A stretch of DNA of 64,000 bases from a virus (taxonomy: Duplodnaviria; Heunggongvirae; Uroviricota; Caudoviricetes): positions 1-64,000 of IMG/VR virus record IMGVR_UViG_2721755710_000007; one strand, given 5' to 3'. Under the pieces are notes generated by a model that searched no databases, was not told where the DNA came from, and was given only the letters and a program-made list of their open reading frames with translations. The position numbers were made by a program, and so were the translations under genes. Below are positions 221-62,526 of the stretch, one piece after another (within the stretch, counting starts at the first letter, position 1; each line of letters begins with the position of its first letter).

Positions 221-1108
221 ATGATCACTTCAGCACAAAACCAATCAATCGAAAATGTATCTATCCCTGACGTCCTGAATGCCGGTATCCCGGCCATTAT
301 CCAGAACATCCGGGCCGCGCAACGCCGCGTTAGTTGTGATGACCTCACAGCGCGTTTTTTTGATAATGCGGTTCAGTCAGCGGAGATGCTTCACGCACAG
401 CTTATTGATGTTTATAACGCAGAAGCTGATAGCCATAACTCCCTGGTAGATGCAGCTGAAAATATGCAGTTGGATCTCGGTCTGAAGGGTAAAGAAATTG
501 AAGAGCTTCAGCTGGAAATTGAACATTTGAAACGCCAGCAACAGGACGCGATCGACGATGCGACGCATGACGCCAACCAGCGTGCTGATAATGCCGAACG
601 TATAAGCATTGAGCTGGAAACAAAACTCAATGAAATGACCGCGATGGTTGAACTGCGGAACTCACAGATTTCAACGCTAAAATCTCAATATAAAGAGATC
701 ATGAAACTTGATCCTTTTAACCTTGAGAAACGCTATAACAAAGCTAAAAGCGAGCGACAGGAACTGCGTAAGCAGGTCGCCGACCTTAACCAACAGCTCA
801 AAAAAACTATTAAAGATGCAAGCGAAGCGCGCGTGGCATTTGCTAATAAAAAAGCAGAGGTTACCGCGCTGGTTAATGAGAATGCCAAATTTGCGACGCT
901 CAAGAAGGAAATGTATGGCATTACTGAGCGCCGTTTCCCTGCAAGCAAACTTCATCCGACGTTAGGGCAAATCTCCTTCTTCCCGCGCCTCCTGGCTTAT
1001 GGGATCTCATCGCCTAAAGAGTTCAATAACGAGCGTCCTTATATCGTTTCTAAGCTGGACTTTGCTTATCAGTTCTGCTGCGACATGGGCTATGCCATTG
1101 ATATCTGA
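221..1108 (+). CDS. hypothetical coiled-coil protein (295 aa)
   Basis: Long ORF with heptad-like charged repeats; no recognisable catalytic motif. Confidence 0.4.
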   Translation: MITSAQNQSIENVSIPDVLNAGIPAIIQNIRAAQRRVSCDDLTARFFDNAVQSAEMLHAQLIDVYNAEADSHNSLVDAAENMQLDLGLKGKEIEELQLEIEHLKRQQQDAIDDATHDANQRADNAERISIELETKLNEMTAMVELRNSQISTLKSQYKEIMKLDPFNLEKRYNKAKSERQELRKQVADLNQQLKKTIKDASEARVAFANKKAEVTALVNENAKFATLKKEMYGITERRFPASKLHPTLGQISFFPRLLAYGISSPKEFNNERPYIVSKLDFAYQFCCDMGYAIDI

Positions 1109-1120
1109 ATCAACGAATGG

Positions 1121-1483
1121 TTGATGCCAAACTTCCAGCCGCTGGCCATTTTCCGCGAGTTCCAGCCGGAAGGTTGGGTAGAGTTCTTCCATGAATTGAT
1201 CTGTAAAGAGATGGAAAGCCGCCGCCCGGAACTGGTCCGCCGTGTCGAGTGGGCGCAAGAGGTTATGTTGGCAGATGCAGAGCTGCCGTTCGAACCGGAA
1301 TTTATTGATGATCTGGCAGCTAAAGGGCTGCATACCCTGTTTGATGTGGTTACCCGCCGTCATGAGCAGTTGGTTGTCGAATTGGGTTTAGAGGAAACAG
1401 CGGCAAGAAGACTTCTCGATGTTTGCTATGCACGTAGCGATGCATGGGAAAAAGAGAACGGCGGCACTATTTACGTTCGCTGA
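1121..1483 (+). CDS. hypothetical protein (120 aa)
   Basis: ORF 13 bp after the previous gene, followed by a terminator hairpin. Confidence 0.4.
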   Translation: MMPNFQPLAIFREFQPEGWVEFFHELICKEMESRRPELVRRVEWAQEVMLADAELPFEPEFIDDLAAKGLHTLFDVVTRRHEQLVVELGLEETAARRLLDVCYARSDAWEKENGGTIYVR

Positions 1484-5564: not shown

Positions 5565-6164
5565 TTAATTACTGACAGTTTCAGGTTTCGGGAAACTGAA
5601 CAGTAAATCACGGTAGTATTCGTATTGTTTCTGGCGCAACTCGATTTCACGCGGAAGACCTTCGGTGATGGAGTTAGTCAGGGTGTCGAAATTATCCAGA
5701 ATCCGAACGATTTCAGACTGGATGGCAAGGGATTTTTCCGGATTATCCGGGCAGGGGATTGGGATTTTTTTTTGAGAATAATTACTAATCCATTGGCGTT
5801 TATGGTCTCCCTCTGCGAATTCACTTGGTAATGTATTGAGCCAATAGTAAACATATTTCAGTAAGGTTTTATTATCATCACATGATGTAACCATTTTCAT
5901 AGCCGATGATTTTGCCTTAAAGTCAAAATCCACCCATTTATTAGCGGTGGTGAAATCATCAAAAATTATTACAGGTGCCTTTGATGCCTGATAAATACCA
6001 TGAGTCTCATTTGTGTATCCAAGAATAAATGTTTTTCCGGCAGTAAGAACCGGGATGGTATATGTGTCGTGATAATCTTTTGCTTTTACCAAATACTTTG
6101 TTGGCTGTTCATATTTGGTTATTTCCCCCAATGGCAACCACTCAACCTCAACCCCATCCAGCAA
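5565..6164 (-). CDS. hsdS: Type I specificity subunit, half-size with one target-recognition domain (199 aa)
   Basis: 24 bp downstream of hsdM; C-terminal conserved HsdS helix (...ILDNFDTLTNSITEGLPREIELRQKQYEYYRDLLF); only one TRD fits. Confidence 0.7.
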   Translation of the reverse strand: MLDGVEVEWLPLGEITKYEQPTKYLVKAKDYHDTYTIPVLTAGKTFILGYTNETHGIYQASKAPVIIFDDFTTANKWVDFDFKAKSSAMKMVTSCDDNKTLLKYVYYWLNTLPSEFAEGDHKRQWISNYSQKKIPIPCPDNPEKSLAIQSEIVRILDNFDTLTNSITEGLPREIELRQKQYEYYRDLLFSFPKPETVSN

Positions 6165-6188
6165 TTTTTCCAGATAAACTTAACTCGC

Positions 6189-10411: not shown

Positions 10412-10970
10412 GTGACCTGGGACGATCACAAGAAGAATTTTGCTCGCCTGGCGCGAGATGGTGGTTACACCATCGCACAGTATGCCGCCGAGTTTAATCT
10501 TAACCCTAATACCGCACGTCGTTATCTCCGTGCCTTCAAAGAAGACACCAGGACAGCGGACAGCCGCAAGCCAAATAAGCCAGTCAGGAAGCCTCTAAAA
10601 AGCATGATCATTGATCACGCTAATGATCAACGTGCAGGTGATCACATTGTGGCTGAAATGGCTGAAAAACAAAGAGTTAATGCTGTTGTCAGTGCCGCAG
10701 TTGAGAACGCTAAGCGCCAAAATAAGCGCATAAATGATCGTTCTGATGATCATGACGTGATCACCCGCGCCCAGCCGCCGCGCTGATGCCGCATTGTGGA
10801 TTGAGCATCGTAGAGAAGAAATTGCCGATATCGTCGATACAGGTGGTTATGGTGATGTCGATGCGGAAGGCATATCAAACGAAGCATGGCTTGAACAGGA
10901 TCTGGACGAAGACGAGGAGGAAGACGAAGAAGTTACCCGCAAACTGTACGGGGATGATGATTAATGGCCA
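10412..10970 (+). pseudogene. pacA: pacA, terminase small subunit, shortened and frameshifted
   Basis: N-terminal 124-codon ORF (10412-10786) with HTH-like start; acidic C-terminal tail (...[15 protein letters not shown]) is in another frame from about 10761; total about 180 codons. Confidence 0.6.
10605..10763 (+). other. pac packaging site (hexamer repeats with Dam GATC sites)
   Basis: Four TGATCA hexamers at 10605-10644 and three TGATC(A/G) at 10735-10763, the 4+3 arrangement of the P1 pac site. Confidence 0.8.
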
Positions 10971-12448
10971 GAAGTTGCGTAACGGACCCACGTTGGCGCG
11001 AGCTGGTGGCGCTATATCGTTATGACTGGATTGCGGCCGCTGATGTGTTGTTTGGGAAGACACCAACCTGGCAGCAGGATGAGATCATTGAGTCCACGCA
11101 GCAGGACGGCAGTTGGACAAGTGTGACCTCCGGCCATGGTACTGGTAAATCGGATATGACGAGTATCATTGCAATACTCTTCATCATGTTTTTCCCCGGC
11201 GCTCGCGTCATTCTGGTCGCTAACAAAAGACAGCAAGTCCTTGATGGTATTTTCAAATACATAAAGAGCAATTGGGCTACTGCTGTTAGCAGATTCCCGT
11301 GGTTGTCAAAGTATTTCATTCTTACAGAAACGTCTTTTTTTGAGGTGACTGGCAAGGGTGTTTGGACAATATTGATAAAGTCCTGTCGCCCCGGGAATGA
11401 GGAGGCGTTGGCTGGTGAACACGCCGATCATCTCTTGTATATCATCGACGAAGCGTCGGGTGTGAGTGATAAAGCATTCAGTGTGATAACAGGTGCGCTG
11501 ACCGGTAAGGATAACCGTATTCTGCTTCTTTCCCAGCCTACGCGACCTTCAGGCTATTTCTACGATTCACACCACAGACTAGCTATTCGCCCGGGAAATC
11601 CTGATGGATTGTTTACTGCGATAATACTGAATAGTGAAGAATCTCCGCTTGTAGATGCAAAATTTATACGAGCAAAACTTGCGGAGTATGGCGGTCGTGA
11701 TAACCCCATGTACATGATCAAAGTACGTGGTGAATTTCCCAAATCTCAAGATGGCTTTCTTCTTGGTCGTGATGAGGTTGAGCGGGCGACGCGGCGAAAG
11801 GTCAAGATTGCCAAAGGATGGGGCTGGGTTGCATGTGTTGACGTTGCTGGTGGCACAGGACGAGATAAGTCCGTTATTAATATCATGATGGTGTCCGGCC
11901 AGCGAAATAAACGCCGTGTAATCAACTATCGTATGCTGGAATACACAGACGTTACAGAAACGCAGTTAGCCGCCAAGATTTTCGCAGAATGTAACCCAGA
12001 ACGGTTCCCGAACATAACCATAGCTATTGATGGCGATGGCTTGGGGAAATCGACGGCTGATCTAATGTACGAACGCTATGGCATTACCGTCCAGCGTATC
12101 CGCTGGGGTAAAAAGATGCACAGCCGTGAAGATAAAAGCCTTTATTTCGATATGCGCGCTTTCGCGAATATTCAGGCGGCAGAAGCTGTAAAATCAGGGC
12201 GTATGAGGCTTGATAAGGGGGCTGCGACTATAGAGGAAGCATCAAAGATACCGGTAGGGATAAATTCCGCAGGTCAATGGAAGGTGATGTCAAAGGAAGA
12301 TATGAAGAAAAAACTCAACCTGCACTCACCGGACCATTGGGATACATATTGTTTCGCTATGTTGGCGAACTATGTTCCCCAGGATGAAGTGCTTAGCGTC
12401 GAAGACGAAGCGCAGGTTGATGAAGCTCTGGCATGGCTTAATGAATAA
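10964..12448 (+). CDS. pacB: terminase large subunit PacB (494 aa)
   Basis: 494-aa ORF overlapping the pacA tail; Walker A-like GHGTGKS; length matches P1 PacB. Confidence 0.85.
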
Positions 12449-12472: not shown

Positions 12473-13324
12473 CTATTGCGCGCTTTCGGGGTTGTCGTTT
12501 ACTGGCTGCCCCTTCTTAGTTTTACGGCTGCGCGTAACTGATGCGGCTGATTTGACCTTTTTCTCTTCGCGAGTGATGGCAATTTGTTTTTTTACATTTT
12601 CAATATCTGCCAGGCGATATATTTTTGCCTGCGGCCAGCGGTCGCAGATGATCGGTTCTATAGAGTCATAAAGGCTAAATTTTGCTTTCTCGAATTCACC
12701 GTTGATGATGATTCCATCACGGAGAGTTTCATCGCAGATAAACACACCACACAGCGGCACATGGTAACTAACTGATTTACCATCATTGTAGTTAGGGCTA
12801 CTGGAAATGTAATGGACGCGCAGCATTGTTTCGCTAAAGCCGTGTACACGCATACGGAATTTTTCATCCTCCGGGTACTGCTTCATTAGCTCTTTTGTTG
12901 CTTCCAGGTTCTCTATGTATTTCGCACTGTGCTCATTGATCCCCGCGCTTTTCTGGATGCGAATGTCCTTATCAATCAGATGAATAATGCGGCCAGCGGT
13001 CATGTTGACGCTGTTCACAGCTTCTGTCTGATAAGTTGTAACCTTACGCACACCGCGAAGGATGTTAGGCACTGGATATAAAATAGTCTTTGGGATATTG
13101 AGGTCTGGGTACTGTTCCAGTTCTCGCGCCATTAAAGTCCATTTATCAATTTCAGCCTGAATGCTGTCCGTTTCTTTGAACGGCAGAACGACAACCGGGC
13201 GTACAGGACGACCGTCGCTGGCGGCATCAACGTGTTGGGCGCGTGCAACAGCTTTTTTTAGAAAGAGATCCCTGAAGCTGACGAACTCCTGGTACAGTTG
13301 TTCGCCGTAGACATAATTTATCAT
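12473..13324 (-). CDS. c1: C1 master repressor of lysogeny (283 aa)
   Basis: Sequence matches P1 C1 as I recall it (MINYVYGEQLYQEFVSFRDLFLKKAV...); 283 aa. Confidence 0.9.
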   Translation of the reverse strand: MINYVYGEQLYQEFVSFRDLFLKKAVARAQHVDAASDGRPVRPVVVLPFKETDSIQAEIDKWTLMARELEQYPDLNIPKTILYPVPNILRGVRKVTTYQTEAVNSVNMTAGRIIHLIDKDIRIQKSAGINEHSAKYIENLEATKELMKQYPEDEKFRMRVHGFSETMLRVHYISSSPNYNDGKSVSYHVPLCGVFICDETLRDGIIINGEFEKAKFSLYDSIEPIICDRWPQAKIYRLADIENVKKQIAITREEKKVKSAASVTRSRKTKKGQPVNDNPESAQ

Positions 13325-18982: not shown

Positions 18983-19237
18983 TAATCAATCTCCGTGATT
19001 TGTGGTCATCAAGACCGGACGCAGGAATAGCCCAGACTCTACTACTGCAACCATATAAAAAATAATAGAAATATTGGTTTATAGCATTTTTACAGATAAA
19101 AAAATTGACATCTGACAAATTACTTCTGCCAAAATCACATCAAGCCCGGTACGGATGGATCCCTTTTCAAATATTCCATGGACGGCACAGTCTGAGTACC
19201 GGGCGCTACCTTCAGTTGTATTGCTAAGCCGCCGCTG

Positions 19238-19909
19238 GTGGCTTTTCTTTTTTGTAGGGGCGCTATGGATAAGAAAATATGCGTTGTTTCGATGAGCGTC
19301 GGCAAACCGGCGTCAATGACTGCTGCATGGATCAACAACGAGCTGATAATGGCTGATCGGACCAGCTACCCTGAACGCCGCCGCGATATGGAACTCCAGC
19401 TGCTGCGCGAATTGCGAGAAAAAGAGGAAAAGGGTTTTATCGTGCTGGTGGAAGAGGAAAACAGCTTTATTACCGGTCGAGTTGGCCAGCGTGTAAGGTT
19501 GCGCGATCCCTTCATGAACGGCAGGCCGGTACTAATTGAAGCAATGCAGATTTACAAGGAGTTGGAACGCCAGAAAGCGATCAAGTTACCGCGCAAGGAA
19601 TCCGGCAAATACATCCTCCACCAAAGCATCTTCGATTCCGAACACGATAAAAAAGGCGATGAGTTTTTCAACATCAACTGGAGCGAGATAACGACAGAGC
19701 ATGTTCTAACGTTGTTATGCTGCTTCGCAACAGAATACAACAACGTGGTAAGCGCAGACTACATCAGGACAATGACAAACACCGTTACTAAACAAGACAA
19801 CGAATATTCACCATATGAGCTATTTGTAAATATGATAAAAGCATTTTATCGGATGGAGCTCGCTAAAGTTCCTCAAGGTAAATTAACAGGTAAGGATAAC
19901 ATCTTTTAA
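19238..19909 (+). CDS. hypothetical protein (223 aa)
   Basis: ORF at the start of AT-rich cargo; no recognisable motif. Confidence 0.35.
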   Translation: MAFLFCRGAMDKKICVVSMSVGKPASMTAAWINNELIMADRTSYPERRRDMELQLLRELREKEEKGFIVLVEEENSFITGRVGQRVRLRDPFMNGRPVLIEAMQIYKELERQKAIKLPRKESGKYILHQSIFDSEHDKKGDEFFNINWSEITTEHVLTLLCCFATEYNNVVSADYIRTMTNTVTKQDNEYSPYELFVNMIKAFYRMELAKVPQGKLTGKDNIF

Positions 19910-33177: not shown

Positions 33178-33455
33178 GTGACCTCCTGATGTGAAATCAC
33201 TATACCGAAGTGGTTTTTATTTTTTTTCACAAACAGGACTTTTTTCAGTGATTTTTTTCTGAGAATTATGAGGGGCGTGTCGTTGGTGCGATGCATACCG
33301 ATAGTGAATAACACCAGATGAGCTCGGGAACGGCATAGCGGGGTGTACTTATGTTCGGCAGAAAAGTAGCTTTTTCTGCAATGGGTATTCCTGATCCGGT
33401 GATTTGAAAAGTGCTGTTTTACTTACTAAGTTATACATATATCTAGTGCCACTTT

Positions 33456-33612
33456 TTAATCAAAAGTGACCCTAGGTTTTTTGCGCATAGTGCCACTTTT
33501 TAAAAAAGTGACCCTATGTCCTGTCTACATAGGGTCACTTTTCACAAAGAAGTGACCCTATGTCGAGGCTCCATAGGGCCACTTTTCAGCAAAAAGTGAC
33601 CCTATGTAATAG
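33456..33612. repeat. array of four tandem palindromic units (core AAAAGTGACCCTATGT / ACATAGGGTCACTTTT)
   Basis: Units begin near 33456, 33489, 33527, 33571; each has 12-14 bp inverted arms around a short spacer. Confidence 0.8.
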
Positions 33613-34189
33613 CCATTGTTAATCAATCGGAAAAATATTCATGCTAGCTCGCTCTTATCGCTAAGGTTATTGCTGCTTTCTGCCGATAACAGTGCAAGTT
33701 TTGCGATTTTTTTAAGCGCTTCACAGTTCGTTAGCAAGCTCAGTTTTTTTTGATAAAATTCTGGTCAGTTTGTTTAAAAAGTGTTACAAGTAAGGCGAAT
33801 GGTTGAATGGTTAGTTTTAAGACTCAAATCGGCAGTATTAAAATTCCAAAAGTAGCTTTTCATACTTCAAAAAACCAAACTTTAATTTCATGTAGAAGAG
33901 TTGTACTATTGTATTGACTCAAGGACAATCCGACATGTCAGAATCAGATAACATAACGCGTAACTATTACGTACCGAGGTTTCGATTATTCGTAGTTACC
34001 GTGCATTCCTAATGTTATTGCCTATCCATGATCTTCTTCGTATCAATCAGGGTCTCCACTCTTGCAACGCCGTCTATTTGGAGACGGATTTGGGACAATG
34101 ACTGATAATGCATTTGAAGTTGAAACTCGTCCGGGAAGTTTCCTCGTTCCACGTTCTTTAGGCAAAGAGATTTCCTGGGATAATTTTTT

Positions 34190-34720
34190 ATGGCTGTTGT
34201 CGATGGTGACACTAACGTTATTCGAGAATATGACAGTGACGATGCTGACTTCGGTATTTACAATGCTGGGGAAAAAGTTACTTTACTGTGTGGCCGGGAA
34301 GACTTTTATAATCCGACAAAAATTCAGCAGTTACGCTCTAAGTGTGTAGATATACAAAATGATTACTTTATTCAAATCTTCTTTATGTCAATGCTTGCAC
34401 CTGAGTTTGTCAGCATATTTTTTGGATTAAAGCCTGCCACCGCAGATGCAATAAAAGATGTTGGCGTTTCATCACTTAAAGCAATTAACGATGTTGTTCT
34501 CTTTCCGCGAACAATTGCCTTTACGCCAGGACTGGGGGATGATAGCACTACGTTAAAATCTAAAGTATTCGCCAGGGCATACGAATTATCTGCCGACATT
34601 CGTTTGGGTAAAGTTAGTGATGACTTAATGGAACTACTGCGTTACGACACTATGTTTACGTGTCACCGTCAGGATGTGTTTAACTCATTAGCAAATAAAG
34701 TGCTCTTGAAGGATTATTGA
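34190..34720 (+). CDS. hypothetical protein, 176 aa (an upstream out-of-frame ORF 34062-34349 may be a frameshifted N-terminus)
   Basis: ORF divergent from the two-gene operon; ends 7 bp before IS1 copy 3. Confidence 0.4.
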   Translation: MAVVDGDTNVIREYDSDDADFGIYNAGEKVTLLCGREDFYNPTKIQQLRSKCVDIQNDYFIQIFFMSMLAPEFVSIFFGLKPATADAIKDVGVSSLKAINDVVLFPRTIAFTPGLGDDSTTLKSKVFARAYELSADIRLGKVSDDLMELLRYDTMFTCHRQDVFNSLANKVLLKDY

Positions 34721-34726
34721 ATATGG

Positions 34727-35494
34727 GGTAATGACTCCAACTTATTGATAGTGTTTTATGTTCAGATAATGCCCGATGACTTTGTCATGCAGCTCCACCG
34801 ATTTTGAGAACGACAGCGACTTCCGTCCCAGCCGTGCCAGGTGCTGCCTCAGATTCAGGTTATGCCGCTCAATTCGCTGCGTATATCGCTTGCTGATTAC
34901 GTGCAGCTTTCCCTTCAGGCGGGATTCATACAGCGGCCAGCCATCCGTCATCCATATCACCACGTCAAAGGGTGACAGCAGGCTCATAAGACGCCCCAGC
35001 GTCGCCATAGTGCGTTCACCGAATACGTGCGCAACAACCGTCTTCCGGAGACTGTCATACGCGTAAAACAGCCAGCGCTGGCGCGATTTAGCCCCGACAT
35101 AGCCCCACTGTTCGTCCATTTCCGCGCAGACGATGACGTCACTGCCCGGCTGTATGCGCGAGGTTACCGACTGCGGCCTGAGTTTTTTAAGTGACGTAAA
35201 ATCGTGTTGAGGCCAACGCCCATAATGCGGGCAGTTGCCCGGCATCCAACGCCATTCATGGCCATATCAATGATTTTCTGGTGCGTACCGGGTTGAGAAG
35301 CGGTGTAAGTGAACTGCAGTTGCCATGTTTTACGGCAGTGAGAGCAGAGATAGCGCTGATGTCCGGCGGTGCTTTTGCCGTTACGCACCACCCCGTCAGT
35401 AGCTGAACAGGAGGGACAGCTGATAGAAACAGAAGCCACTGGAGCACCTCAAAAACACCATCATACACTAAATCAGTAAGTTGGCAGCATCACC
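34727..35494 (-). mobile_element. IS1, copy 3
   Basis: Identical to copy 2, same orientation, with insA/insB ORFs (35164-35439, 34742-35245). Confidence 0.95.
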
Positions 35495-36968
35495 TATCAA
35501 TGGCCTGGGCAATACTTTCCGTCGAAAATGATTGCAACATATTGCCGATATCCTCAAATCCAAGTGATTTGAGAGCCTCACCAATGGCGCTGCTAATACC
35601 AGATACCAGTCCCCCCATATCAAGAACATTAGCTAACGTATAAGCGGCTTTTTGCTGGAATGATGGATCTTGTCCTGATTTAAGCCCAAACGCTCGACGT
35701 TGCGCTTCTGTATCATTCCAACCGGTTACCGCATCATAAATACCTCCAGCCACTGTGCCGACTAGGGGAATTGCGCGTAACGCCCCTTTACCAACTGCCT
35801 TTAATCCAAGTTTACCTGCTGCCCGGGCAGCCAAATCTCCGCCTTCATGGGCGAGAGTCTTCTTGCCACCACCGCGTAGCATTCCTACAAGTTTCTTTGC
35901 CCCCAGAGCGCCAAAAGCGAGTGCTCCAGCTTTTTTCAGCATGCCACGCCCCATTAACAACGACGCGACGCCACCGGCCCCCTTCCCTAACAGGCTAAAT
36001 AGTTTGGACAGCAAGCCGCCCTTCTTTTTCCCGGTGTTTTTGGCTATCTGATCAAGGGCACGGAGAATCTTGTCATTGCCCTCTTTAATTTCGCTGGTCT
36101 GCTCCTGAAGTTCCTGAACCGTCCGTTTTTGGGTGTTAACCTGAACGACATCGGCACTATTTTGCGATTTACGCCTAAAAAAACCTTTTCTACGGCTGTT
36201 ATCGTCGTTGCCACGAATCACATCGGCAATAGACTTTCTGGCACCATTAAGCGATCCACCAACTTCTTTTGATATCCCGCCAAGCTCCTTCCCTGCTGCC
36301 CACAATGGACCAGCAACGGCATAACCTAACGCATCGACGGCACGAGTCTCTGAAGGGTTACCTATGCCTTCAGCTACTTTTGACAGTTTTTTTAATAAAC
36401 CTGATTCAGCATTTAGACGCTCATCATCCTCTTTGCGCCTGGCCTTTTCAGCACGTTCAGCACGGGCATCTTCCGCTGCGGCCTTACTCCCTGACTTTCC
36501 AATAAAACGACCACGCGCATCGCGTTGGTTTTGGCTTTTTTGCGCACCGCCTTTTTGACCGAACATTTCGCGAGCGTGTTCGGCTGCTTCGGTCCGTTGC
36601 GCCTTTACATCTTCTGTTATAGCCTTCTTGCGTCGTTTTTTACCCTTTCGCGTAGTTGATTTGGCCTGCGGTTCCTGTAGAGCAACATCCTCCTGAACTA
36701 CACGAGAAACGTCCCCTAAATTAAGCCGTTTCATTGCCTCAACAATAGGGTCCACTGATGGCGCATTGGCCACAAAGTCTGGCCGGGAATTTTCGATTGT
36801 GCGATTTAATGCCGACACACTGCGAGAGACAGGATCAACTGTAGCAACTCGCCCACCTTTCAAATCTTCAACGGCTTCCCGAATACCTGCAAGCTCTTCC
36901 AGCTCTTTTGCGCTGGCGGTTTCAACCGTCCTTATCACATCGTCAATGTTGGCGTTTTTTCTTTCCAT
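35490..36968 (-). pseudogene. phage structural protein (tape-measure/Sit-like), C-terminally truncated by IS1
   Basis: 492-codon ORF whose last sense codon and stop lie in the IS1 terminal repeat; Gly/Lys/Ala-rich tape-measure-like composition. Confidence 0.5.
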
Positions 36969-56624: not shown

Positions 56625-57413
56625 TTACTGTGCCGCTTTGTTTAATTCATCAAGAACTGAATCAGGAACCAAAGCGGCAACTGCGCTGGCTGTGCTGGCC
56701 TTATTTGCTGATGCTTCCGCAAGCGCGGTACCGATAGCATGGTTATAAGCAGTTATGGCTACGTTGGCGCTTTCATTCGCTCGTTCATACTGCTGTTGTA
56801 ACGCAGTTGTGGGCGCTGTTGTCTGGTTGAAAACAACCCCAAACTGTTCAGTTGCTACTTTCAGAGATTCAATTTGCTCTTCTGTTAGTGCTGGTGGGGG
56901 AGTGGCAGTGCCGCCGCCTGAACCAGAGCCTGACGAGCTTCCTGAGCCAGTGTTAAGGGTCTGGTTAATCTCCCCCATAGCAGCGACTAAACTTGATGTA
57001 TTAAGCGCGTTAACAGCGTCCTCAAGCGATTTAGTAATATTCACATTACCAATGGCAATAGAGATCGGCAGTTCTGAAACTTCTCGCTCATTAGCACGGC
57101 AGTAAACATCCCAACCAATATCGAGTTGAAGCAGCATTGACAGATCTGCATAACCAGCCAACAGGTCCGCGTGCTTAGTTGCCAGTTCTCCAATGTTCGT
57201 TAAGCCGGTTGTGGTTGTTCTGATCGTTGAAACATAGCTGGTAATAGTGTCGGGATAGACAATGGTATCCAGAATTAATCCGGTCAATTCTTCTGCAAGC
57301 AGTTTTGCTGTGTTAGCACTGTTTCGTGCCGATGTTATGGCACCAGGTGTTTTCATCCCACCGGCGGCGGCCAATTTTTTATATGCGGATAACTGGTAGT
57401 CTTTTTCCAGCAT
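56625..57413 (-). CDS. hypothetical protein (about 262 aa from internal Met; ORF-track entry extends to 57470)
   Basis: Ser/Gly/Thr-rich linker; no clear motif. Confidence 0.4.
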   Translation of the reverse strand: MLEKDYQLSAYKKLAAAGGMKTPGAITSARNSANTAKLLAEELTGLILDTIVYPDTITSYVSTIRTTTTGLTNIGELATKHADLLAGYADLSMLLQLDIGWDVYCRANEREVSELPISIAIGNVNITKSLEDAVNALNTSSLVAAMGEINQTLNTGSGSSSGSGSGGGTATPPPALTEEQIESLKVATEQFGVVFNQTTAPTTALQQQYERANESANVAITAYNHAIGTALAEASANKASTASAVAALVPDSVLDELNKAAQ

Positions 57414-57421
57414 GATATCTC

Positions 57422-57706
57422 CTAACTTACCTGAACCAGGCCGTCTCCGGACGCTACGGTAGATCCGCATGAAACAGGGTCACCAACGCATACGATCCCT
57501 TTACCATTGACGGTAAACCATGCCCTGGTTGATATAGCTTGCCCACCGTGCGTACTGTTTCCATCGGTATGCTGTGCATATTGCTTACCATCAACTAACA
57601 CTTCGACTCCGTTGACTTTAAGTAGTGGTTCACTCTCTACAGGAGGCCTGGATGGGAATCCTCCGTGCCCCGAACAAATGCTGTCTTTTGTTGCAATACT
57701 TGCCAC
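57422..57706 (-). CDS. PAAR-like small protein (94 aa)
   Basis: Gly/Cys/His pattern (CSGHGG, VNGKGIVCVGDPVSCG) reminiscent of PAAR spike-tip domains. Confidence 0.4.
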   Translation of the reverse strand: MASIATKDSICSGHGGFPSRPPVESEPLLKVNGVEVLVDGKQYAQHTDGNSTHGGQAISTRAWFTVNGKGIVCVGDPVSCGSTVASGDGLVQVS

Positions 57707-57787
57707 GCCATCACCAATTATTTGCTCTGATTTTCGTTATTTTAACTTAGGTTATTTGTGGTCTGTATGGCGTTTACTTATTACAAA

Positions 57788-57804
57788 ATTGCTCTAATAA
57801 ATAT
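57788..57804 (+). promoter_or_regulatory. C1 operator-like site
   Basis: attgctctaataaatat upstream of the rdgC-like/dmt operon. Confidence 0.5.
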
Positions 57805-57875
57805 TGTTTTTTATGTCGTATTTTCGGTACCATTCAGCCATCGCCCTTCAATGGGCATTTGTTTGGAGTCGTCAG

Positions 57876-58160
57876 ATGCAGATGGAGCTAATAAGCCGCA
57901 AAGAGTTCGATAGCCGTGTAACCAGCGGTGAACTCGACAACTTGCAGGCTATCAAGGTGAAAGAAGGCTTTTGCCTCATTGGGAATCAGAGCGGAACAAA
58001 TCGCGTTTTTATGCTTCGCCGTACGGATTTGAAGCCATTTGTCTGGAAGAACGAAATTGGTCCCAGCTCATACGCTCAAACGAGGGGGTGCCACAACCTG
58101 GCCTTTTTCTACAAAGACGAGCTTTCTGTGGTTGATATTCAAGGGTTACAACATGTTTAA
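57876..58160 (+). CDS. hypothetical protein upstream of the rdgC homologue (94 aa from internal Met)
   Basis: ORF between the operator-like site and the rdgC-like gene. Confidence 0.35.
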
Positions 58161-59058
58161 GCACTGGAAAAACATTACTATTTATAAACTTTCTCGTGAG
58201 GCGGATCTGACCGACTTAGAAGATAAAAAGAAAATGATCCTTTTCACGCCATGCGGTAGTCAGGATATGGCCAAGTTCGGTTTTGTATCTCCATTTGGTG
58301 ATAATTCCGAAGTTATCGCTATGCATGGAAATGGTTTTATCCTTGTTGAAGCAAAGCGCGAAACAAAAATTCTTCCCCCGCCGGTTATCCAGCGAGCTAT
58401 TCAAGAAAAAATTGAAAAACTTGAGCAAGAACAAGCGTGTAAACTGAAGAAAACAGAGAAGGACTCCCTGAAAGACGAAGTTCTGCATTCTCTTCTGCCA
58501 CGGGCTTTTTCAAAGTTTTCTGTTATCCAGGCGATCTACGACGGTTCAACTAAACGTATCTATATCAATGCCAGCGCGCGGCAGGCAGAGGATATGCTCG
58601 CGCTTATGCGTAAGTCTCTGGGTTCTCTTCCTGTTGTTCCCCTGAGTGTTGAAAATCCCATTGAATTAACGCTGACCGACTGGGTACGTGATGGTAGTGC
58701 TCCACAGGGATTTCAAATGGGGGATGCGGCAGAACTTAAGGCAGTGCTTGAGGATGGCGGTATTGCCCGAGTGAAAAAGCAGGATTTGGGAAGCGATGAA
58801 ATTTCCACACACCTGGAAGCTGGCAAGCTCGTCACTAAGTTGGCACTCGACTGGCAGAACCGCATTAAATTTACACTGGACCATAACTTCAGCCTTACCA
58901 GCGTCAAATTTGCGGATGAATTGCTTGAGCAGAACTCTGATATTGATAGTGAAGATGTAGCGCAGCGACTGGACGCAGATTTCTTCCTGTTGACCAGTGA
59001 AATTTCGTGCCTGGTTGATGCTCTGGTAAATGCCCTTGGTGGAGAGGCTAAGCAGTGA
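58153..59058 (+). CDS. hrdC: RdgC-family recombination-associated protein (302 aa)
   Basis: Strong resemblance to E. coli RdgC ([11 protein letters not shown]...[23 protein letters not shown]...SLPVVPL); start at the Met at 58153. Confidence 0.85.
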
Positions 59059-62000
59059 AAGAGCTGTGCTATGGATCTGTTTGCAGTGGAATTGAAGCCG
59101 CGAGTATTGCCTGGGAACCGTTGGGTATGCGTCCGGTTTGGTTTGCTGAAATCGAGCCTTTTCCATCGGCCGTTCTTGCGCTCCGCTGGCCCCATGTCGC
59201 CAACCTTGGCGACATGACAAAACTTGCCAAAAAAGTCTAGGCTGGGGAAATCGAATCCCCTGACGTGCTCGTCGGGGGAACACCATGTTTTACCGCGGGG
59301 CATATGGTTCTTTGTAAAAATGGTTATAAACCAATAGAAGATATTTGCCCTGGCGATTACGTAGTCAGTCATCTCGGGCGGTTACAACAAGTAAAAAGAG
59401 TTGGTTCAAAAATAGCTAATACGGGGTTACTTAATGCCGTTGGGCAGCCTTTAGGTATAAGAACAACCAATGACCATCCCTTCCTGGCGGTTCGGTGGAA
59501 AGCCCAAAACACCCGGAAAAATGGCACATATTTTAAGAGAGAGTTGTTGTCTGAACCGGAATGGCGAGCAGCATGTGATATGCCGGGATATCAATGGTGC
59601 GCTCTAACTAATTTCAATATTGCATCTCCAGATATTTGTTCTCGGTTCTTGTCTGAAGAACAGGCTATGTATCTTGCGGGCGCTTATGTTGGCGATGGAT
59701 ATATTAGGAGATGGAGAGGTAAATCTAAGAAGGCGGTTGTTTTTGGCATAAATTGCCAGAAATTGAGAAAGTTTCATTGCCGCATACCAGAAAACATATT
59801 TTCCGTGGCAAGCGAAATCCGAGGGAGCATCAAAGTAACCTTGAATGATACGTGTTATGCCAATTGGCTTAATGAACATTTTGGCGAGTTAAGCCATGCT
59901 AAGCGTATCCCTGCATGGGTGATGTCGCATCCATTGCGTCATGTGTTTTTACAAGGCTATCTTGATACTGATGGGACACCAAGTGGTAAAGCGGGATTTA
60001 GAATTAATAGTGTTAGTCCTGCGCTTGCTTGGGGCGTTGCGGGGTTGTCACAGACTTGTGGTTATGTTTCTTCGGTCAGCTTTATTGAAGTTGAGCCCAA
60101 AAAAGTGATCGAGGATCGCGTGGTAAATCAACGGAATTATTATCAGGTAACAATCTGCCCGCAGAAATTGTCACGTAAATCAAGATTGGCTCATGGAATG
60201 CTTTTACGAACAGTCAAAGAGTTTAAATCGGTAGGCCTAGATACTGTATACAACATAGAAGTCGAAGGTGATCATTCCTATATCCTCAATGGTGCGGTGG
60301 TCCATAACTGTCAGGCATTCAGTATCGCGGGATTACGTGGTGGGCTTGATGATGAGCGTGGCGCGCTAACTTTAAAGTATGTGGAGCTTGCAAATGCAAT
60401 TGACGACAAACGGGCTGAGTCATTTCTCAAACCAGCCGTTATCGTCTGGGAAAATGTCCCAGGAGTCTTGTCATCGGCAGATAACGCCTTCGGATGTTTC
60501 CTTGCCGGATTGGCTGGAGAAGATGCGCCATTTGAACCAGGTGATCGACCTGAATCAGGAAAAAGTAACGCGTTCTGGCGGTGGGATGGCAAAACCGGTT
60601 GCCATGCTCCAAAGTGGCCGCAGTGTGGTTGTATTTATGGGCCGCAGCGAAAGGTGGCCTGGAGAATCCTTGATGCCCAATACTTCGGAGTGGCACAACG
60701 ACGCCGACGCGTGTTTGTTGTCGCAAGTGCTCGAACAGACCTCGATCCCGCAACGGTACTTTTTGAGTTCGAAGGCGTGCGCCGGAATATTGCGCCGAGC
60801 CGAAAAAAGAAGGAAATCGCTTCCGCCATTACTGCAAATGGCGCTGCAATCAGTGGCGAAAGCCTAAATCCATGCCTACACGCTGGCATGTCCCCCGGTA
60901 TGAAATCGACGAAAGCCGTAAACGGTTTCAGGATGGCGGCATTTGGGGAATATATTGACGATGAAACCGCATCGACAGTAAAGGCAAGAGACTTTAAAGA
61001 TGCCACTGACCTTGCTGTTTTTAGCAGCACAGGAGCAGGTTTTTGGTCAGAAGGGCATGGTACATTGCGGGCTCGTGAGCAAGAAAGCCATGAGCATCTT
61101 GTTACATTGGCTTTTCCTGAGCGTATGAGCGGTACACAACATGCTGCAACTAAGAATACTTCACCATCTCTAATGGCTAAAAATCCAACAGCTGTTTGCT
61201 ATGAAGTAAGAAACGCAGAAGTAGCTGTCCGCCGTCTTACCCCTGTCGAATGTGAAAGGCTGCAAGGTTTTCCTGATGGGCATACGTTGATCCCGACGGA
61301 AAAGCGTAAAAAAGTTAATTCAGATGAACTGGCATATCTTCGCAATCACTATCCAGATTTAAGCGAAGAAGAGGCCGCGATGCTTGCAGCTGACGGACCG
61401 CGTTACAAAGCGATCGGCAATAGTATGGCAATACCAGTAATGCGCTGGATTGGCGATCGGATTACTAAGGCCGTATGTCGGCAGAAAGAAGGAAGTGAAA
61501 CAAAAGAGCGAAAAGTTAAACCAGCGGCAGAATTCGAACGGTCCATATTCAAATGGGCTGGTGGAAAATTTGGTGTTCTGGAACAAATCTTTCGCTATTT
61601 GCCAGAAGGGAAGCGCCTGATTGAACCTTTCGTCGGTGGTGGAGCTGTCTTCATGAATGCCGGATACCAGGAAAATCTGCTAAATGATGTGAATGCTGAC
61701 CTGATTAACTTTTACAAGACTCTGCAACGCGAGGCGCATTCACTTATCACTCTGGCTCATCGTTTCTTCTTGGACTACAACACCCAGGAGGGATTCCTGG
61801 CAGTACGGAATGCGTTTAACAAACAAGTCTATGATGATTTACATCGCGCAGCGGCGTTTTTGTTCCTGAACCGACATTGTTTTAACGGATTGACGCGTTA
61901 CAACCAGGCCGGTGAGTTCAATGTCGGTTATGGGAAGTATAAAACTCCGTATTTCCCATTACAGGAGATGGAAGCCTTCCTCGGTGCGGAAGGTCGTTCT

Positions 62001-62342
62001 GAGTTTGTATGTGGTGATTTTGCTGCGGTGATTGAAGCTGCCGGAGAAGGAGATGTCATTTTTTGCGATCCGCCATATGAACCGCTTCCAAATACAGAGG
62101 GATTCACGAACTATTCCGGTCATGACTTTAAGTTTGAAGAGCAACAACGCCTGGTGTCTCTGTTGACGGATGCTCATCGCCGAGGTGCAAAGGTTCTCAT
62201 TACTAACAGTGGCGCGCCAAACATCAGAGAGCTTTATCATGACAATGGTTTCAGAGTGGAACCTCTTTTTGCCAGACGTTCTGTGTCTTGTAAGGGGGAC
62301 ACTCGAGGTGTTGCTCATGACGTTTTAGGTATATTGCTCTAA
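59055..62342 (+). CDS. dmt: two-domain DNA methyltransferase Dmt (C5-cytosine N-terminal, Dam-like C-terminal), interrupted by an intein and an in-frame TAG
   Basis: C5 motif I ([10 protein letters not shown]), split PCQ motif (GGTPC / QAFSIAG), [15 protein letters not shown]; Dam motifs (KWAGGK, DPPY); GTG start overlapping the upstream stop. Confidence 0.75.
59286..60308 (+). other. intein with LAGLIDADG homing-endonuclease domain (341 aa) in dmt
   Basis: Starts [13 protein letters not shown] (block A), TNDHPF (block B), [11 protein letters not shown] and [11 protein letters not shown] (LAGLIDADG), ends ...[10 protein letters not shown], followed by extein Cys of PCQ. Confidence 0.75.
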
Positions 62343-62349
62343 TAAATTT
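62333..62349 (+). promoter_or_regulatory. C1 operator-like site
   Basis: attgctctaataaattt overlapping the dmt stop. Confidence 0.5.
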
Positions 62350-62526
62350 ATTAGTGTAATATCGCCTCAATGAATCGTGATTTATAGAGCGATTTAGCTG
62401 TTAGCCGCGACAGGCGCGGCGGCAAGTATGGCGGGGTAGTGACTCCTTCCCCATCATGACGCCGAGTTGCCAGGTTGACCATACGCCTAAGTGGCAACAC
62501 CGAAGTGCGTTACGAGCTTCCAGTTT

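Follow-up and report, generated by a model that had tools for sequence, protein, structure and literature searches.

A premature amber codon between the N-terminus and the intein of Dmt in a P1-derived IncY resistance plasmid lineage

The dmt gene of phage P1 encodes a bifunctional C5-cytosine and N6-adenine (Dam) methyltransferase (AAQ14041.1), and its homologue is described here in a stretch of 64,000 nucleotides of viral DNA (IMG/VR record IMGVR_UViG_2721755710_000007, positions 1 to 64,000), which is called the window throughout. Judged from its sequence, the window represents a phage-plasmid of the P1-like IncY kind, with matches in 18 phage records, in 498 plasmids of PLSDB and in 438 of 5,426 complete Escherichia coli genomes. 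The locus is the same as in P1, dmt being the last gene of the C1-controlled uhr-hrdC-dmt operon. On the + strand the dmt frame (59055..62342) opens with a GTG at 59055, which overlaps the stop codon of hrdC (GTGA) and is the start annotated for dmt in both P1 and RCS47, and it closes with a stop codon at 62340-62342, for a total of 1,096 codons. Sense-codon relatives use this frame to encode a fusion of a C5-methyltransferase, an intein and Dam. In the window, its 1,095 positions ahead of the terminal stop include a single internal stop, an in-frame amber (TAG) at codon 62 (59238-59240, + strand), where positions 59229-59249 read AAA AAA GTC TAG GCT GGG GAA. A preliminary description of this DNA, made from the sequence alone, had stated that the frame from GTG 59055 meets the TAG and then continues, and that the TAG lies 15 codons upstream of the intein; both statements were borne out, the TAG being the only internal stop in the whole frame and codons 63-77 filling the gap between it and Cys1 of the intein at nucleotide 59286.

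The amber codon divides the gene unevenly. Upstream of it lies an N-terminal fragment of 61 codons plus the stop (59055..59240, + strand), which covers motif I through motif III (GDMT) of the C5-methyltransferase, and downstream lies everything from PCQ onward, the Dam domain included. Motif I, which binds S-adenosylmethionine (AdoMet), and motif IV, which contains the catalytic cysteine, are therefore split by the TAG, and no single polypeptide encoded in the window has both. The C-extein part of the C5-methyltransferase domain (60309..61295, + strand) begins with CQAFS of motif IV and continues through ENV, QRR and later motifs; PCQAFS and ENV are covered by an alignment of dmt to M.HhaI. 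When scored with the Pfam profile PF00145 (cut-off 22), the sense-codon protein reaches 107 bits and the residual open reading frame (ORF) downstream of the stop 78 bits. At the far end of the frame is a D12-class N6-adenine (Dam) methyltransferase domain (61554..62252, + strand; residues 834-1066, with DPPY), which matches PF02086 with 191 bits against a cut-off of 22 and shows FCDPPY in the translation.

The intein that separates the two halves of the C5-methyltransferase domain is 341 amino acids long (59286..60308, + strand; residues 78-418, CFTAGH...VVHN) and is inserted directly before the catalytic Cys of PCQ. It carries two LAGLIDADG motifs, and all canonical splicing residues are found in its translation, i.e., Cys1, TTNDH (TxxH) in block B, the terminal HN and the +1 Cys. 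The Pfam profiles Hint_2 (29.5 bits, cut-off 28.4) and LAGLIDADG_3 (30.9 bits, cut-off 22.5) both recognize it. Matches reach into the intein in about a quarter of the P1-like PLSDB records that match the window (127 of 498), and P1 and P7 are without it. A search of the literature returned nothing specific on the dmt intein or on the TAG allele.

The ORF upstream of the TAG is the genuine N-terminus of Dmt and not a chance open frame, because it matches the P1 protein from its first residue, because its GTG is the annotated start, and because the spacing to the intein fits. Codons 1-78 of the window gene and residues 1-78 of P1 Dmt are 94.9% identical, the TAG being the one stop in this stretch, and the match to P1 continues past it into GGTPC. 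Over the exteins as a whole, the protein identity between P1 Dmt and the window is 95-98%. The P1 protein differs in having CTG at codon 62, no intein and a length of 754 amino acids, whereas the window has TAG and a 341-residue intein before the PCQ cysteine. The alternative that homologues genuinely begin downstream of the TAG finds no counterpart among them, since starts at GTG 59265 or ATG 59304 are annotated only in TAG carriers.

A sense codon had been expected at the TAG in the preliminary description, and a comparison with homologous dmt genes had been proposed there; that comparison confirmed the expectation. Eight sequenced relatives have a sense codon at position 62: CTG (Leu) in P1, CAG (Gln) in P7, and TTG (Leu) in RCS47, OP279344, NZ_CP020936.1, NZ_AP022163.1, NZ_LR883966.1 and NZ_CP040069.1. 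The alignment to M.HhaI refines the position further, placing codon 62 within a four-residue insertion relative to that enzyme, between motif III (GDMT, equivalent to GDIT) and motif IV (PCQAFS), and the TAG is accordingly read as replacing a sense codon at a tolerant position. The Dmt proteins of RCS47 (CDN90818.1), NZ_LR883966.1 and NZ_AP022163.1 (WP_097428273.1) have the same layout of 1,095 amino acids as the window frame, with a C5-methyltransferase split by a LAGLIDADG intein and followed by Dam, and the intein-bearing dmt of the RCS47 type differs from that of the window in having TTG at codon 62 and in being annotated as one uninterrupted coding sequence (CDS). In OP279344.1 and NZ_CP020936.1 the intein-bearing dmt was seen to end about 82 codons early (3,042 vs 3,288 nucleotides; codons ~1013-1014), and the region of the Dam domain is strongly divergent in both; the two genes may have another Dam allele or may be truncated at the C-terminus.

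The nearest relative with a sense codon is NZ_LR883966.1, plasmid 2 of a Norwegian red-fox isolate. Over 8 kb it differs from the window only at 59239 (T vs A) and at 62363, and over 62,378 aligned bases the two are separated by 30 single-nucleotide polymorphisms (SNPs), of which 14 are synonymous, 10 non-synonymous, four intergenic and two nonsense, both nonsense changes lying on the side of the window. The event at codon 62 was a single T-to-A transversion at 59239 that turned TTG (Leu) into TAG.

Direct reading of the sequences showed the TAG in six assemblies that are independent of one another and differ in project, source and country: NZ_ON934557.1 (plasmid p22Q34-2), NZ_JBVWFT010000002.1 (human skin or soft tissue, Ottawa, Canada), NZ_JCAPUC010000003.1 (frog-farm sediment, Guangdong, China), the Logan assembly of SRR29490212, GCA_026283205.1 and GCA_965181205.1. 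The exact 71-mer that spans it occurs in at least one of 430 matching PLSDB records and in at least two of 439 matching records of complete E. coli genomes, all of these counts of carriers being lower bounds. When the exact protein products were looked up instead, the 61-residue gene was followed by the 1,012-residue residual gene on 22 of the 23 contigs that were read, and the exact residual ORFs were recorded on 32 and 28 contigs. The corresponding figure for the 61-residue product, 58 contigs / 106 blocks, is an upper bound that includes partial gene calls at contig ends. One such contig was L010 (ENA ERZ27268832 k141_9298), a metagenome contig of 97.6 kb whose end mimics the 61-residue product and so inflates the exact-product counts. 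It had been considered as a TAG carrier on another haplotype, which would suggest recurrence, and was dropped: its sequence breaks off at 59237, one base short of the polymorphic positions 59238/59239, probably at a break of the assembly graph caused by a strain-level variant.

All verified carriers share one haplotype across 57301-59282, namely that of NZ_LR883966.1 with an A at 59239, and because of this the TAG allele appears to have arisen once. The carriers are nevertheless not all alike. Over 8 kb, the window is identical to p02B17002_B, a complete carrier plasmid, as well as to the ES6 plasmid and the Logan contig, whereas p22Q34-2 and GCA_965181205.1 form a sub-lineage with two added changes in dmt, G394G (synonymous) and A779T. 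An identity of the window with p22Q34-2 itself was rejected, since a match of 100% over 501 nucleotides gave way to three differences within 8 kb. In GCA_026283205.1 the repA-upfB flank is different and dmt is identical, and the backbone must therefore have recombined after the mutation.

In the operon, hrdC (rdgC-family; 58153..59058, + strand) precedes dmt, and the promoter region contains the C1 repressor operator Odmt (57788..57804, + strand), one mismatch away from the consensus. The stop codon of dmt is adjoined by the divalent C1 operator Oban and the ban promoter region (62333..62360). Matches to the C1 operator number 11 in the window, where 0.36 would be expected by chance, and the c1 repressor gene is intact (12473..13324, - strand; 283 amino acids) and would keep the dmt operon repressed in the plasmid state. 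Because dmt is the last gene of its operon and the ban operon has a promoter of its own, the stop codon would not be polar on other genes. The one function for which phage Dam is required is the methylation of pac, and this only in Dam- hosts (PMC12707154; PMC11437467), and dmt was found to be non-essential in a screen of P1 by CRISPR interference (PMC10695390).

The remainder of the phage has suffered much larger losses than a single codon. Compared with P1 (NC_005856), the block from prt to pmgA is absent from the window, from p02B17002_B and also from the TTG-bearing NZ_LR883966.1, and with it the portal, pro, the endolysin (lyz), the holins, ssb, the dar genes (darA), cin, the tail fibre genes S, R and U, gene 16 and bplA. 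The sit gene breaks off at residue 501 (35466-36968), and in p02B17002_B, which is nearly identical, RefSeq places an insertion sequence, IS1, directly after the truncated gene. What is left of darB encodes residues 1651-2255 (22368-24182). The damage to sit and darB is common to the window, p02B17002_B and NZ_LR883966.1, and because the latter still has TTG at codon 62, the backbone was already that of a defective prophage before the TAG arose. Because its virion, lysis and packaging genes are incomplete, the window falls outside the functional P1-like phage-plasmids (Punavirus). The P1 module for maintenance and immunity has been kept, with a RepA that is 100% identical to that of P1 and with cre, phd, doc and c1 intact.

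Point mutations and smaller deletions have accumulated on top of these losses. Among the 37 P1 homologues that were checked in the window, three have in-frame stops, i.e., dmt (TAG), pmgS (TGA) and the truncated sit. The pmgS homologue (221..1483, + strand) has a second premature stop of the lineage, in which CGA (Arg) at codon 296 has become TGA (1106-1108); this stop is common to p02B17002_B, where it is annotated as 'internal stop', and is absent from NZ_LR883966.1 and P1. A further lesion concerns pacA, the gene for the small terminase subunit that also contains the pac site, of which a remnant is found at 10412..10963 (+ strand): about 640 bp (residues 121-332) are deleted, with a junction near 10771-10777, and the neighbouring pacB (10964-12448) has remained intact. 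The deletion was found in none of the top-ranked PLSDB records and appears to be private to the source of the window.

P1-like phage-plasmids are known to decay often into ordinary plasmids, and some of these acquire mobilisation genes (PMC10879196). In that study, Pfeifer and Rocha (2024) described decayed elements that, like the present plasmids, had lost lysis and tail genes, gained insertion sequences, resistance genes and IncA/C mobilisation fragments (mobI, mobH), and kept replication and partition. The losses reported there are at the level of gene repertoires, and a point mutation in dmt was not found discussed. By comparison with p02B17002_B and NZ_LR883966.1, the gap at about 22368-36968 of the window was seen to hold IS1 and IS3 copies, an autotransporter gene, a toxin-antitoxin pair of the relE type and IncA/C-type fragments (mobI, trhR). 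The resistance genes lie elsewhere on these plasmids, outside the filled gap.

It is very likely that the TAG is a genuine nonsense mutation that has been tolerated in a decaying prophage. The preliminary description had listed a nonsense mutation beside a sequencing error and suppression-dependent expression, and the first of these is the one supported by the sense codons of the homologues (TTG, CTG or CAG) and by a closest relative that is one T-to-A change away at 59239. The TTG codon of Leu62 was changed to TAG once, in an IncY P1-derived resistance plasmid lineage, and the TAG then spread with this lineage. Translation from the native GTG would stop after 61 residues, and the AdoMet-binding motifs I-III would thereby be cut off from PCQ, the intein and the Dam domain. 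Trace near-cognate read-through aside, full-length Dmt would not be made, and the C5-methyltransferase would be inactivated whatever happens downstream. The mutation was presumably tolerated, and was probably neutral, because the plasmid was already unable to build and fill virions, dmt would be repressed by C1, and the Dam of the host can supply the methylation of pac.

Some observations weigh against a gene that is simply dead. Apart from the TAG, the frame of 3.3 kb is fully open, and the two changes named above, one synonymous and one A779T, are the only further ones in dmt within the TAG lineage; with only two later substitutions, no selection test can be made on the downstream ORF, and the sequence data would be compatible both with a gene that died recently and with a downstream part that is still useful. 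Moreover, having survived at least one event of recombination (GCA_026283205.1), the allele is apparently not strongly deleterious.

In the rival that survives best, ribosomes reinitiate after the stop, at GTG 59265 (25 nucleotides downstream) or at ATG 59304, so that the Dam part is kept and the N-terminus of the C5-methyltransferase is lost. The gene would then not be dead, and the effect of the mutation would be to separate Dam from C5 methylation. The residual ORF (59304..62342, + strand) encodes 1,012 amino acids from ATG 59304, or 1,025 from GTG 59265, and is annotated as 'Dam family methyltransferase' in TAG carriers; it is without motifs I-III and, if begun at the ATG, also without Cys1 of the intein. 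The intein could still splice in a protein that starts at the GTG, and would at most undergo C-terminal cleavage in one that starts at the ATG. In E. coli, translation is known to restart behind nonsense codons, for instance in lacI. Here, the frame downstream is intact for 1,025 codons, Dam forms a Pfam domain of its own and is matched strongly, and ATG 59304 is preceded by a weak Shine-Dalgarno-like element (GGGG) with a pairing energy of about -4.5 to -5 kcal/mol, compared with -6.4 for the native start. GTG 59265, however, has no Shine-Dalgarno pairing at a usable spacing, and Rho-dependent polarity normally affects a stretch that is left untranslated behind an early stop. The intact frame is equally explained by recency (30 SNPs in 62 kb from a sense-codon relative), and a defective prophage shows no evident need for a phage Dam. 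A restart with partial function is for these reasons considered unlikely, and the chance of residual Dam activity is likewise small. Complementation between the 61-residue peptide and a restart product was also considered and set aside, as it lacks both supporting evidence and a precedent for splitting the protein at that position.

A stronger version, in which the amber turns dmt into a Dam-only gene, can be formulated: a restart would yield an intein-led protein that is spliced or cleaved at its C-terminal junction, giving Dam without C5 methylation, and this outcome could be favoured in a derepressible, non-lytic prophage in McrBC+ hosts. It is regarded as quite improbable. Less probable still is a positively selected knockout, based on the notion that, in a derepressible prophage that does not lyse its host, the C5-methyltransferase would expose the host DNA to restriction of the McrBC type. 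Such selection would be in keeping with a stop that is early enough to abolish C5 activity and with an allele that outlived a recombination event of the backbone and spread across continents, yet the allele has a single origin and has not recurred on other haplotypes, hitch-hiking with the resistance genes on the plasmid readily explains the spread, and the unrelated nonsense mutation in pmgS fits neutral decay. The C5 activity of P1 Dmt is, besides, itself deduced, the P1 record annotating it with 'perhaps'.

Suppression, in which a suppressor tRNA or programmed read-through would give the TAG a sense meaning and Dmt would be made conditionally, was found to be a very poor fit. It would have the merit that position 62 tolerates Leu or Gln, so that a supE-type insertion of Gln would restore the residue found in P7 and probably an active enzyme, and 155 of 5,423 complete E. 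coli genomes do carry glnV alleles of the supE44 type. The 40 of these 155 genomes that were listed, however, are overwhelmingly named as K-12 laboratory strains or their derivatives (C600, DH5alpha, DH1, J53) and not as field isolates. This screen for host suppressors covered supE-type glnV, counted across all of the complete E. coli genomes. No tRNA with a CUA anticodon was detected in the window, where ARAGORN finds only tRNA-Asn(GTT) and tRNA-Thr(TGT), and none is annotated on the complete carrier plasmid p02B17002_B, which has tRNA-Asn, tRNA-Thr and tRNA-Ile only. The TAG is, furthermore, missing from the rest of the matching records (in PLSDB, 429 of 430 are not identical to the 71-mer, and among complete E. 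coli genomes 437 of 439 are not), it is limited to a single recent haplotype and not conserved as an in-frame stop among homologues, and the second premature stop of the lineage, in pmgS, is opal (TGA) and not amber. An error of sequencing or assembly in this record, which a one-base difference from close relatives would ordinarily signal, can be discounted with near certainty, as the identical base is present in the six independent assemblies, exact-match products occur on dozens of contigs, and the site lies outside any homopolymer, the nearby A6 run stopping 5 nucleotides upstream.

A tolerated nonsense mutation involves nothing that is mechanistically new. It is an ordinary case of pseudogenisation, which RefSeq already annotates as split or partial: in the TAG carriers, a pseudo or partial 'DNA cytosine methyltransferase' that is missing its C-terminus is followed by a 'Dam family methyltransferase' (WP_073511587.1 / WP_170930426.1). 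These annotated plasmids have the same allele as the window, and the plasmid of the window differs in having the pacA deletion in addition. The CDSs annotated in the TAG lineage as 'Dam family methyltransferase', with starts at 59265 or 59304, are, on this account, very likely artefacts of the premature stop, and dmt should be flagged there as a pseudogene. The A at 59239, together with the TGA in pmgS, would also serve as a handy single-nucleotide marker for following this clonally spreading lineage of IncY resistance plasmids derived from P1, which has been found in human, animal and environmental isolates, and the mutation adds one more documented step to the path by which P1-like phage-plasmids decay into plain plasmids.

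Two other genes of the window also appear altered. The hsdS gene of a type I restriction-modification system (about 5689-6178) is short in the window and in p02B17002_B (627 nucleotides as annotated) compared with 1,236 nucleotides in NZ_LR883966.1, and the stretch of 490 nucleotides in the window aligns at two places of NZ_LR883966.1 that are 609 nucleotides apart. This suggests that hsdS lost one of its target-recognition halves by recombination between internal repeats, and its specificity may have been changed or removed as a result. The homologue of mat, the gene for maturation control (19155-19906), was matched by P1 Mat in two frames, with residues 1-44 in one and 31-250 in the other, which points to a gene that is either frameshifted or shortened; the protein annotated in relatives is shorter, at about 214 amino acids.

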